DNA of 64,000 nt from NCBI GenBank assembly GCA_947372355.1, contig CANBTI010000006.1:354-64353 (forward strand), in the 5' to 3' direction. A program made the position numbers and the translations under genes. Each line of letters opens with the position of its first letter. Position 1 is the first letter of the stretch. The notes beneath the pieces were generated by a model. The model was not told where the DNA came from, ran no database searches, and saw only the letters and a list, made by a program, of their open reading frames with translations. Origin of the DNA: Bdellovibrionales bacterium (GTDB lineage Bacteria; Bdellovibrionota; UBA1018; CAIMNF01). Positions 3,641 through 5,639 of the stretch are shown here, one piece after another.

Positions 3641-4156
3641 ATGAACAAAACAGTTAATCCAGTTTTTGAAGCGATCATTCACAATATTCGAGGCAAGAAA
3701 GTCATTCTCGATTACGATTTGGCGAAACTTTATGGAGTAGAAACCCGGATCATCAACCGTGCAGTAAAGAGAAATATTGAACGTTTCCCTTCAGACGGGA
3801 TGTTCCAACTCAAAGAAATAGAATGGGAATCTCTAAGATCCCAAATTGGGATCTTAGACGTTTCACGGGGCCAATATACAAAATACCTGCCATTTGCATT
3901 TACAGAACTCGGTATTGCGATGCTTTCATCCGTACTGAGAAGTGAGACTGCAATCCAAGTCAATCTTGCAATTATGCTTATGTTTATCGAACTACGGAAT
4001 CATTTCCGTCAGGGAAAAGATCTAGGTTCAGAACTCACCGATCTCAAACAAAACACGAATCAACTTTTTTAAATCGTTTTTGAAAGACTCGATACACTCG
4101 AAAAAGATGATCCAATTCGATCACCCGATCGAAGAAAAATTGGGATTAAGACTTAG
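3641..4156 (+). pseudogene. ORF6N-domain DNA-binding protein with an in-frame TAA at 4070-4072
   Basis: IRGKKVILDYDLAKLYGVET...RFP...LPFAFTELGIAMLSSVLRS. The frame continues past the TAA as IVFERLD...RRKIGIKT*, resembling the family C-terminus. Confidence 0.7.
3832..3858. repeat. Perfect 27-bp palindrome inside ORF6N copy 1
   Basis: TCTAAGATCCCAA-A-TTGGGATCTTAGA, encodes SLRSQIGILD. Confidence 0.95.
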
Positions 4157-4164
4157 ACGCAATC

Positions 4165-4191
4165 TTTGAAATTCCAAATTGGAATGTCAAA
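4165..4191. repeat. Intergenic near-perfect 27-bp palindrome homologous to the ORF6N in-gene palindromes
   Basis: TTTGAAATTCCAA-A-TTGGAATGTCAAA (one mismatch), preceded by AATC like both in-gene copies. Confidence 0.9.
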
Positions 4192-4319
4192 ATTTTATGC
4201 TGATATAACGCTCAAAAATTGCAACCAAAGTTATATGAAATATGTCCCATACCATCTCGTTATTTACATAGAATGGCGGAATTAGAACATTTATGAACGA
4301 TTGACGGCTGTTTTACATA

Positions 4320-4808
4320 TTAACGACTTAATTTATCCATACTAAAAGAACCCGTAAGATCACTAGATTTGTACTTTCCAGAAACGGAACGTAAGTTTGA
4401 GGTCAGAGTTCCTTCAAATTCTGCAATGATGGGTATGGAGTCGTAGGTTTTCGTAAAAACCATTTTTTTATCAGTAATTTTTCCCTTAACTATTGCCCGA
4501 CGAGTGGGATTCTTTGCTTGATCTTCGCCATAGTTTGGCTCAGTCATCATTCCTTCAATTTTTTCGCCATCATTTGCTAAGGCCAATTGAAAGTAGATCT
4601 TTTTAGTATCCTCTACATCTTTGGATGAAAAACCCATAAAACCAGAGCGTTCTATAAACTTTCTCGATACTACGAAGTAGCCATTCCATTTGCCACCATA
4701 TGAGGTCTCAGAAGATTGAGGTTTTTTTGTTTCTGCCTTCACTGTACCCACGAGTAGGATATTCATTAGTAGGAGTAGCGAGGCTGTCTTCTTGTATGTT
4801 CTGGCCAT
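4320..4808 (-). CDS. Secreted hypothetical protein (beta-rich)
   Basis: Signal peptide; AAGGA RBS; IEGMMTEP...FTKTYD...FEGTL...SGKY pattern. Confidence 0.7.
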   Translation of the reverse strand: MARTYKKTASLLLLMNILLVGTVKAETKKPQSSETSYGGKWNGYFVVSRKFIERSGFMGFSSKDVEDTKKIYFQLALANDGEKIEGMMTEPNYGEDQAKNPTRRAIVKGKITDKKMVFTKTYDSIPIIAEFEGTLTSNLRSVSGKYKSSDLTGSFSMDKLSR

Positions 4809-4950
4809 GGTTGATTTTCCTTAAACCTTGGAAAGATAGCAAGAGTAATTGCAGGATAGTCATTCACGTTCAATAATGCACCAATTCATTTACAGGATTT
4901 ATGTCCCAATACTCCCTACAAATTAAGTTCAGCATAATGATCGATTAGAA

Positions 4951-4966
4951 AGGCTCAGGATTTGCA
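4951..4966 (+). promoter_or_regulatory. Sigma54-type -24/-12 promoter of ORF6N copy 2
   Basis: AGGCTCAGGATTTGCA (GG-N10-GC), C 13 nt before the ATG; a degenerate equivalent TTGTCACAAATCTTGC lies at the same spacing before copy 1 (3613-3628). Confidence 0.55.
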
Positions 4967-4977
4967 CTGGGCAAAGC

Positions 4978-5505
4978 ATGAATTCAGAATTATCAGTAAA
5001 AGAAATTGGGCAGAGAATCTACTTTATCCGCGGGCACAGAGTGATGTTGGATAGTGATTTGGCGGAGCTATATGAGGTTGAAACTAAAAATCTCAATAAA
5101 GCAGTTGACCGAAATCCGGGGCGATTTCCAATCGATTTTATGTTTCAACTGAATGAAAAAGAGTATGAATCTTTAAGGTTCCAATTTGGAACCTTAAACA
5201 AAGGCCGCGGAAAACACCGAAAATATTTACCCTATGTCTTTACCGAACAAGGAGTCGCCATGTTATCGGGTGTGCTTCATAGCGAACGGGCTATTCAAGT
5301 AAATGTGGCGATCATGCGGACGTTTGTTCAACTTCGTAGAATACTTGAATCAAATAACGAACTAGTAAAAAAACTCGAACAAATTGAACGCAAGCTTCTT
5401 CGGCACGACCATGATTTTAAGTACGTATTTGAGGCAATCAGACAGCTTATGGCCACAGGTTCTCCAGTCACTCAGAAAAAAATTAGACCGCTTGGTGAGA
5501 AGTGA
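4978..5505 (+). CDS. ORF6N-domain DNA-binding protein
   Basis: IRGHRVMLDSDLAELYEVET...RFPIDFMFQL...RKYLPYVFTEQGVAMLSGVL, C-terminal coiled coil. Confidence 0.92.
   Translation: MNSELSVKEIGQRIYFIRGHRVMLDSDLAELYEVETKNLNKAVDRNPGRFPIDFMFQLNEKEYESLRFQFGTLNKGRGKHRKYLPYVFTEQGVAMLSGVLHSERAIQVNVAIMRTFVQLRRILESNNELVKKLEQIERKLLRHDHDFKYVFEAIRQLMATGSPVTQKKIRPLGEK
5172..5198. repeat. Perfect 27-bp palindrome inside ORF6N copy 2
   Basis: TTTAAGGTTCCAA-T-TTGGAACCTTAAA, encodes SLRFQFGTLN. Confidence 0.95.
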
Positions 5506-5562
5506 ATTAACTTACTAAATCGAACAAGGCTGAACGAACGAGTTTTAAAAGAGAAGTGTGAA

Positions 5563-5639
5563 TGGCGAACCCGCCAGGACTCGAACCTGGGACCCCCTCA
5601 TTAGAAATGAGGTGCTCTATCCAGCTGAGCTACGGGTTC
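5563..5639 (-). tRNA. tRNA-Arg(TCT)
   Basis: GAACCCG...CGGGTTC-G-CCA acceptor; CCTCA-TTTCTAA-TGAGG anticodon arm; TTCGA T-loop. Confidence 0.97.

Follow-up and report, generated by a model that had tools for sequence, protein, structure and literature searches.

Why should the reading frames of two paralogous genes each hold a perfect inverted repeat at the same codons, with letters that differ between the genes and change in both arms at once? The question is raised by a 64,000-nucleotide stretch of a Bdellovibrionales genome (GenBank assembly GCA_947372355.1, contig CANBTI010000006.1, positions 354 to 64,353 of the forward strand), hereafter the window, which carries two genes of the ORF6N domain family (PF10543). 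ORF6N gene 1 (3641..4072, plus strand) encodes 143 amino acids and matches PF10543 with an E-value of 2.5e-30 and 105 bits. ORF6N gene 2 (4978..5505, plus strand) is intact, encodes 175 amino acids and matches with an E-value of 4e-34 and 117.2 bits. Both exceed the curated Pfam cut-off of 27.8 bits. As judged in silico, the palindrome is real, lies far beyond chance and is maintained at the DNA level across the ORF6N family. Its letters covary with a predicted recognition helix of the protein, which suggests that each protein probably binds the palindrome within its own gene.

The palindrome of gene 1 occupies 3832-3844 and 3846-3858 (arms TCTAAGATCCCAA and TTGGGATCTTAGA) and encodes (S)LRSQIGIL(D), while that of gene 2 occupies 5172-5184 and 5186-5198 (arms TTTAAGGTTCCAA and TTGGAACCTTAAA) and encodes (S)LRFQFGTL(N). 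With a position matrix built from 124 internal sites of the family, they score 34.1 and 37.2 bits, respectively. In both genes, the arms are 100% complementary around a 1-nucleotide spacer and stand in an identical codon register (S-L-R-S-Q-I-G-I-L-D versus S-L-R-F-Q-F-G-T-L-N). The original prediction, made from the letters of the window alone, had described such a perfect 13-1-13 palindrome at the same codons of both paralogues, and an arm search together with the PF10543 matches confirms it. The codons also bear out its statement that the arms differ at 3 of 13 positions, with every change mirrored and some changes altering amino acids. Codon position 3 of the left arm pairs with codon position 2 of the right arm and vice versa, and each mirrored pair combines a synonymous change in one arm with an amino-acid change in the other. 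Contigs of relatives add a further compensated pair to the gene 2 palindrome, where A>G at 5175 accompanies T>C at 5195.

Two sets of homologues place these genes in a family-wide frame. The first holds 28 loci found by searching 41 related genomes, with matches in 17 of them. The second holds 80 loci on genome contigs, the best 80 of 598 confirmed stretches, whose record titles name Bacteroidota, Nitrospirota, Omnitrophota, Patescibacteria, Verrucomicrobiota, Firmicutes, Cyanobacteria, Methanosarcinales, Nanoarchaeota and others. The peptide pattern used for this second set, [AV]FT[EQ]xG[VI]AML, falls outside the palindrome, and hence the set was not selected for it. The internal site was present in every one of 114 distinct genes. 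When 130 distinct segments were aligned on the Gln codon, 53 paired at 13 of 13 positions, 47 at 12, 15 at 11 and 15 at 10 or fewer, the last group including misaligned or very divergent rows.

Such symmetry is not a by-product of the encoded peptide. A codon null was applied to 129 segments, in which the peptide was held fixed and synonymous codons were resampled 2000 times per sequence from the gene's own and pooled codon usage. Resampled segments paired at a mean of 5.3 of 13 positions versus 11.8 observed, with p at most 0.001 in 110 of the 129 rows, and full 13/13 pairing was reached by none of approximately 258,000 resamples. The comparison of homologues with codon-shuffled controls, which the original prediction had proposed as a check, thus places their palindromicity far above peptide expectation and supports its view that protein-level selection alone cannot keep the symmetry.

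The extent and composition of the element were profiled on 124 rows with at least nine pairs, after six rows had been dropped. Pairing ranges from 81 to 100% at positions 1-13, counted outward from the centre, and amounts to 46, 53, 37, 27 and 10% at positions 14-18. Because pairing drops beyond position 13, the element measures 27 bp. Positions 2, 3, 6 and 9 are nearly invariant, and the pair type switches at positions 4, 5, 7, 8, 10 and 13; at i=4, for example, A:T occurs in 43 rows, C:G in 40 and G:C in 27. Across 111 aligned sites, both sides had changed in 214 cells versus 69.7 +/- 7.5 after shuffling, a value that none of 500 shuffles reached. Paired cells made up 94.9% of the total, compared with 82.2% in shuffles and 26-49% when the partner column was slid. 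At the centre, 67 of the 124 sites have A and 57 have T; none has G or C. A symmetric duplex site with a central A:T pair reads as A or T depending on the strand, which accounts for this restriction; Ile (ATT) and Phe (TTT) are permitted, and Val (GTT) and Leu (CTT) are excluded. Inversion of the segment, which the original prediction had noted would yield the A/T swap between the two window genes, is therefore not needed.

For 88 genes, the mutual information of each protein column with the variable positions of the site was computed, using the residue numbering of gene 2. The column most informative about positions i=4 and i=5 is residue 41 (1.34 bits, z 35), followed by residues 38, 42 and 37; for position i=7 it is residue 37 (0.68 bits, z 25). 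All remaining columns outside the palindrome-encoded segment stay at z of 7 or below for these three positions. The codons of residues 37, 38, 41 and 42 lie about 90 nucleotides upstream of the palindrome, and the information shared with these helix residues equals or exceeds that shared with the residues that the bases themselves encode.

On 86 distinct genes, the relation takes the form of a code. Gln at residue 41 goes with a TCACAA core in 29 of 31 genes, Glu with TCGCAA in 18 of 19, Lys with TTCCAA in 9 of 9, and Leu with TTGCAA or TTTCAA in 3 of 3. Arg is less strict, with TGCCAA in 14 of 24 genes and, among the others, mostly cores that carry C at i=4. All 18 TCGCAA genes also have Arg at residue 38. 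The site class is predicted from residue 41 alone in 72 of the 86 genes, compared with 31 for a guess of the commonest class. At i=7, G in both arms is accompanied by Lys at residue 37 in 50 of 53 genes, and A in both arms in none of 21. The resulting pairings of Gln with A, Glu with C, Arg or Lys with G, and Leu with T agree with the usual amino-acid-to-base preferences.

Several controls narrow the meaning of this relation. Within the codons of residues 38, 41 and 42, the signal resides in the first and second positions; third positions and neighbouring codons do not carry it, and the half-site core occurs within the helix-coding DNA in none of the 86 genes. The covariation therefore acts at the amino-acid level and does not reflect a relation between two DNA segments or a linked block. 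Moreover, among proteins with Arg at residue 67 and Thr at residue 72, the synonymous third base of codon 67, which is i=7 of the left arm, goes with Lys37 in 47 of 49 cases when it is G and in 1 of 8 when it is A (Fisher p 1e-6, kinship not corrected for). Because this synonymous base still tracks residue 37, a contact between residues cannot explain the covariation. Kinship was addressed on a quick maximum-likelihood tree of 86 rows, from which residue columns 35-44 and 63-77 had been dropped. This tree shows 42 changes of site class and 41 changes of residue 41. Among phylogenetically independent pairs on supported branches, the direction was the same in 7.4 of 8 pairs for CA (i=5 and i=4) with Gln41 (median p 0.016), 5.7 of 6 for CG with Glu41 (0.031), 4.8 of 5 for GC with Arg41 (0.06), 3.5 of 4 for TC with Lys41 (0.25) and 8.9 of 10 for G at i=7 with Lys37 (0.004). 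The pairs agree in direction and are never opposite, and the covariation is not explained by a few clades.

A different kind of coupling is seen at i=10, which encodes Leu or Ser at residue 73 and covaries strongly with loop residues 80-82 (mutual information 0.9). This separates a 'TL..GRG..RKY' from a 'TSS.WGGRRY' form of the loop and is probably a coupling at the protein level.

Both window genes conform to the residue-to-base code as read from the family alignment. The predicted recognition-helix codons of gene 1 (3743..3772, plus strand) encode T-R-I-I-N-R-A-V-K-R, the counterpart of gene 2 residues 36-45 (residue numbers in gene 1 are one lower). Gene 1 has Arg, Ile and Arg at the equivalents of residues 37, 38 and 41 and the site AGATCCCAA; Arg at the residue-41 position accompanies a TCCCAA core, and a residue other than Lys at the residue-37 position accompanies A at i=7. 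In gene 2, the helix codons placed by the structural model (5083..5112, plus strand; residues 36-45) encode T-K-N-L-N-K-A-V-D-R, with Lys, Asn and Lys at residues 37, 38 and 41 and the site AGGTTCCAA. Here, Lys37 accompanies G at i=7, and Asn38 and Lys41 accompany a TTCCAA core. Two of the three mirrored differences between the genes (i=7 and i=5) are thereby matched by helix changes.

The placement of these residues comes from an AlphaFold2 model of the gene 2 protein, built from a 92-sequence alignment with a mean predicted local distance difference test score (pLDDT) of 82. The model begins with two short strands and a helix-turn-helix-like pair (helices 25-32 and 36-45), continues with a strand, helix 60-69 and a loop at 70-85 (pLDDT about 54), and ends with a strand, helix 90-100 and the long helices 103-141 and 145-159. 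Residues 37, 38, 41 and 42 are predicted to line one face of the second helix of the pair. The palindrome encodes residues 65-74, which in the model run from the end of helix 60-69 into the beginning of the low-confidence loop. A two-copy homodimer prediction scored 0.17 against a mark of 0.42, and nothing is drawn from that score.

Taken together, these observations favour the reading that each ORF6N protein binds the palindrome within its own gene through its recognition helix, with negative feedback as a consequence; we assign this reading a probability of roughly 0.65. The protein, with a winged-helix-like DNA-binding domain at its N-terminus and a long helix at its C-terminus, would act as a symmetric dimer, and its helix at residues 36-45 would read the 27-bp palindrome at codons 65-74. 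Near-perfect symmetry would follow because both half-sites must suit one protein. A shift in the specificity residues (37, 38, 41 and 42) would then be answered by mirrored changes in both arms, and self-binding would likewise explain why the motif is restricted to ORF6N genes. The site would have been placed where the protein tolerates imposed amino-acid changes, at a helix end and the start of a floppy loop. Bound protein would block elongation and so exert negative feedback on its own transcription, and further control, by own or sister proteins, would come from the additional sites located upstream or downstream of some genes. Feedback of this kind would accompany the gene and operate regardless of its surroundings, which would suit a solitary, horizontally spread gene among unrelated housekeeping genes. 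Binding, dimerisation and the consequence of binding are steps that we infer from three in silico results, namely the family-wide palindrome, its upkeep at the DNA level and its covariation with the helix. The same covariation with residues 37, 38, 41 and 42 lends support to one of two proposals in the original prediction, that the gene may hold its own operator within a variable segment of the protein.

The genome from which the window derives (2.73 Mb in 125 contigs) contains nine PF10543 matches, and all nine paralogues carry the palindrome at the same codons. Eight pair at 13/13, some reaching 14-16, and the ninth (L008) pairs at 11/13; six site classes are represented within this one genome. 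Perfect 13-1-13 palindromes number 14 genome-wide, of which nine are of the ORF6N type, eight inside ORF6N genes and one before the ATG of L008. This last copy is a perfect 29-bp palindrome (G000 C100:6466-6494; L008 1428-1456), located 13 nucleotides before the ATG, between L008 and a divergent racemase gene. The internal palindrome of L008 is the least perfect in the genome, and it has the TTCCAA core in common with the upstream copy. When the genome was scanned with the family matrix at 10 bits or more, 14 matches were obtained: nine internal sites, three beside ORF6N genes and two weak others, compared with about one in shuffled genomes.

Copies outside the reading frame also occur across the family. 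An extra site was found up to 170 nucleotides upstream of the ATG in 17 of 112 genes, at 14-140 nucleotides before it, and up to 130 nucleotides past the stop codon in 7 of 103. Some genes have two, 28-31 or 52-76 bp apart, and the CAA-W-TTG core is retained in non-coding copies. Whole-site similarity within a locus is above random (5.9 versus 7.7 differences, p 0.0002), and comparison of the copies suggests that some upstream ones may be sites for sister proteins. At one locus (L049), the upstream copy (1409-1435) is the exact reverse complement of an asymmetric internal site in one of two genes (GGTTTCAA-T-TTGCAACC versus GGTTGCAA-A-TTGAAACC), which suggests recent copying between both places.

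A number of results weigh against self-binding with feedback. Upstream sites belong to the minority of genes counted above, and in 7 of 18 cases, versus 5.1 expected, their inner class equals that of the site inside the same gene (p 0.23). Because class agreement is so limited, a simple loop in which one protein binds both an upstream and an internal site is unsupported. None of three upstream regions scanned contained a sigma-70 consensus, leaving overlap of the upstream sites with promoters unsupported as well; in two of the three, the scan marked the palindrome itself as resembling a minus-strand terminator, a result that we regard as incidental. Structural similarity to DNA-binding winged helices is weak. 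The best Foldseek matches in the PDB were Ski/Dachshund winged-helix DNA-binding domains at an E-value of 0.09, followed by MarR-type regulators, and none reached 0.001 or better; a PDB sequence search found no solved relative. Furthermore, four of the nine copies in this genome are damaged, and all four retain perfect palindromes. Gene 1 stops at a TAA (4070-4072), a position at which L006 and L009 encode Lys, and its former C-terminal coding part continues in frame past this stop (4073..4156, plus strand; IVFERLDTLEKDDPIRSPDRRKIGIKT) for 28 codons whose homologues form the intact ends of these two paralogues. By this comparison, gene 1 appears to be either a recent pseudogene or a truncated variant. 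L006 has AAG instead of a start ATG, L009 lacks its N-terminal half and begins about 32 nucleotides before its palindrome, and L003 has an altered C-terminus. Perfect palindromes in damaged copies fit decay that is recent, sister proteins that bind the sites, or a degree of mutational upkeep. Finally, should the ORF6N genes themselves hold the only sites in the genome, feedback alone would not account for the purpose of the protein.

What such a protein might do can be approached through its surroundings. Both window proteins match the PADLOC family PDC-S05, a candidate defence label (E 2.4e-47 for gene 1 and 1.8e-61 for gene 2), and we know of no defence phenotype for it. The gene 2 protein also matches PHROG 4792, annotated as 'anti-repressor' (E 3.5e-27). 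Five of 50,697 records in a phage collection matched, all unannotated, and the genes are thus not prophage-borne. Neighbours are mostly housekeeping genes, both in other phyla (129 of 210 neighbouring open reading frames scanned) and in this genome (39 around five paralogues), where paralogues adjoin mutL, miaA, murI, ileS and ftsK. The 129 include only a few Fic, N6_Mtase/HsdM, EcoEI_R_C and RhuM genes and the 39 include none, and neither set of reading frames reveals a defence island. Integrases account for 2 of the 129, and no recombinase is a regular neighbour. Some family members interrupt functional units: the L091 gene lies between the S-methyl_trans and Pterin_bind/B12-binding domain genes of methionine synthase, and the L086 gene between fliP and fliQ. 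Judged by gene order, both appear to be solitary insertions within operon-like contexts. L006 and L007 each adjoin a gene with a DUF4423 domain (L133 1431-2207 and L134 3335-4126; C100 and C102), one of them also with HTH_19, which may be a recurrent neighbour.

The main rival to feedback shares its binding step and differs in purpose. It holds that the palindrome is a cognate 'self' mark or decoy and that the ORF6N protein is a single-gene anti-phage factor, switched off or held by its own site. The model is BstA, which is reported to have a KilA-N-like N-terminal DNA-binding domain and to be suppressed in a variant-specific manner by aba, a 63-bp element overlapping the start of its gene (PMC8585504, Owen et al. 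2021). The likeness, in silico on the ORF6N side, lies in a short element that overlaps the coding sequence of its own gene, acts as DNA and is cognate to each protein variant (PMC8585504). The PDC-S05 matches of both window proteins agree with this reading, and six site classes within one genome resemble diversifying, mutually exclusive specificities. PDC-S05 is only a candidate label, however, and neither the phage records nor the housekeeping neighbourhoods speak for a prophage-borne or island-borne defence gene. The elements differ too: aba spans the start codon, depends on terminal direct CCCGCC repeats and is not palindromic (PMC8585504), whereas the ORF6N site is a 27-bp 13-1-13 inverted repeat at codons 65-74. 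BstA is a prophage-borne protein of about 307 amino acids and the ORF6N gene 2 product a solitary, chromosomal one of 175; the BstA domain is KilA-N-like, whereas that of the ORF6N proteins is PF10543, with a predicted winged-helix-like fold and weak structural matches. How aba meets BstA is reported as unknown (PMC8585504), whereas the ORF6N pairs display a readable residue-to-base code. On balance, a self mark of this kind seems unlikely, although it is the strongest of the rivals. A further version, also less likely than not, would treat each ORF6N protein and its palindrome as a self-addressed pair with a code of nearly one residue to one base pair, the palindrome being an intragenic 'self' mark for a very widespread single-gene anti-phage factor. 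Such pairs, with Gln, Glu, Arg, Lys or Leu at residue 41 and Lys or another residue at 37, would diversify into mutually exclusive specificities, as the six classes of this genome might illustrate.

The other explanations dispense with self-recognition. Replication template switching (quasipalindrome correction) is reported to homogenise the arms of inverted repeats, invert their spacers and create or maintain hairpins (PMC8794818, PMC8604942, PMC7202029), and inverted repeats of this origin share with the ORF6N element perfect arms and paired changes, also in coding DNA (PMC8794818, PMC8604942). A functionless palindrome kept symmetrical in this way would accord with the perfect copies in damaged genes and with mismatch counts that resemble a balance of mutation and correction (53 perfect, 47 with one and 15 with two mismatches). 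Upkeep of this type is mutational, involves no partner protein and predicts no covariation with distant residues, whereas the arm bases here track residues 37, 38, 41 and 42, encoded about 90 nucleotides away, down to a synonymous base and on independent pairs; the CAA-W-TTG core is also kept in non-coding copies, and the motif is confined to ORF6N genes. As a full explanation it is therefore highly improbable, and template switching may still supply the mutations that bring the second arm into line with the first. An mRNA hairpin acting on stability, pausing or translation, or bound as RNA by the protein, is very unlikely for other reasons. Leader, coding and post-stop copies could all be transcribed, but wobble pairs are not in excess among the 109 mismatched cells (22 G.T versus 37 A.C and 50 other), and the conserved centre of non-coding copies counts against it too. 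Pairing stands at 99-100% at i=2 and i=3 and at 81% at i=1 and thus continues as far as the one central base, although a hairpin loop has no need of this. A recombination or inversion site that shuffles gene halves between paralogues or marks the ends of a mobile ORF6N cassette is likewise highly improbable. Sites before and behind some genes, truncated copies such as L009 and the solitary position of the genes among unrelated housekeeping genes would suit it. Against it, no recombinase regularly adjoins the genes, and distance correlations between successive protein blocks show no drop across the palindrome (0.09 for B1-B2, 0.17 for B2-B3 and 0.24 for B3-B4), a comparison of low power in which all correlations are low. 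Post-stop copies as cassette ends were rejected in the window, where the site behind gene 1 is the leader site of gene 2. The second proposal of the original prediction, that template switching or recombination diversifies the segment as a cassette in hairpin or cruciform form, finds no support in this low-power comparison.

Binding by the protein of the same gene has precedents of a limited kind. Sites within the gene of the binding protein include parS in spo0J/parB and the lambda ori iterons in gene O, and intragenic auxiliary operators include lac O2 and gal OI. All share with the ORF6N case a sequence-specific protein with a site in coding DNA, sometimes in its own gene. They are single loci, whereas the ORF6N site keeps a fixed codon position in nearly all members of a family that spans many phyla and covaries with specificity residues. 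Paralogous helix-turn-helix repressors bind palindromes as dimers, and the bases of the operator covary with specificity-determining residues at positions i, i+1, i+4 and i+5 of the recognition helix. Their operators are normally promoter-borne and imperfect, in contrast to a site within the reading frame that has at most one mismatch in 26 positions in 100 of 130 segments. Searches of the full-text literature found no description of an ORF6N palindrome or of a binding site for an ORF6N protein; the articles consulted mention the domain in passing.

The ORF6N palindrome would thus turn an embedded self-site, known from single cases, into a fixed, family-wide feature that extends from Bacteroidota to archaea. 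It constrains both protein sequence and codon choice and is a clear natural case of a DNA signal that overrides the two. Since each gene carries its own target, the recognition code can be read from genomes, and specificity rules for an uncharacterised fold become testable. This opens a way to the function of a very common gene, labelled 'anti-repressor' or PDC-S05, without a known role. If the self-addressed pairs were real, they would represent a palindromic, chromosome-borne counterpart of BstA-aba and a natural, re-programmable and readable code of DNA recognition. For annotators, the case advises caution, as palindromes in coding DNA may be protein-binding sites and not hairpins or assembly artefacts.

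The remaining features of the locus concern the region between the two genes. A non-coding palindrome (4165-4177/4179-4191; 12 of 13 pairs, 92%; core TTCCAA; 25.0 bits) stands at the 5' end of an ORF6N leader. It was considered as the remnant of a third ORF6N gene and rejected, as the sequence behind it matches the leaders of L006 and L009 and relatives join 4240 directly to 4900, which places the site about 141 nucleotides before the ATG of gene 2. The leader is conserved over about 150-190 nucleotides (GTCAAAATTTTATGC...AACGCTCAAAAAC...ATGTCCCAATA...TCACAGATCTTGC) before several ORF6N genes of this genome, with instances at G000 C100:1291-1323, C15:36337-36369 and window 4186-4218. Different palindromes occupy the 5' ends of these leaders, including TTGCCACATGTGGCA in C15 and TTTTGACAC-AAATC-GTGTCAAAA in C100. 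In the window, the first part of the gene 2 leader (4192..4240, plus strand) matches the leaders upstream of L006 and L009, and the second part (4900..4977, plus strand) belongs to a unit, 4900-5510, that matches C32:16791-17401 at 76%.

Between these parts lies a 659-bp segment (4241..4899) that splits the leader, is absent from relatives' contigs and is outside the ORF6N system. It contains a lipoprotein-like open reading frame (4320-4808, minus strand) with no Pfam match. Nine letters are shared at the joint (TATGTCCCA-like repeats near 4238 and 4901), and the segment was either inserted here or deleted in the relatives. The joint rests on one contig each of runs X1 and X2, which represent relatives and not variants within the population. 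The same contigs carry 28 additional letters immediately 5' of the non-coding palindrome, at 4163. A comparison with empty sites in the genus defined no insertion boundaries for the window locus, where orthologues of the neighbouring metalloprotease are 39% identical and have no adjoining tRNA. In the window itself, gene 2 is followed by a tRNA-Arg gene at 5563-5639 on the minus strand.

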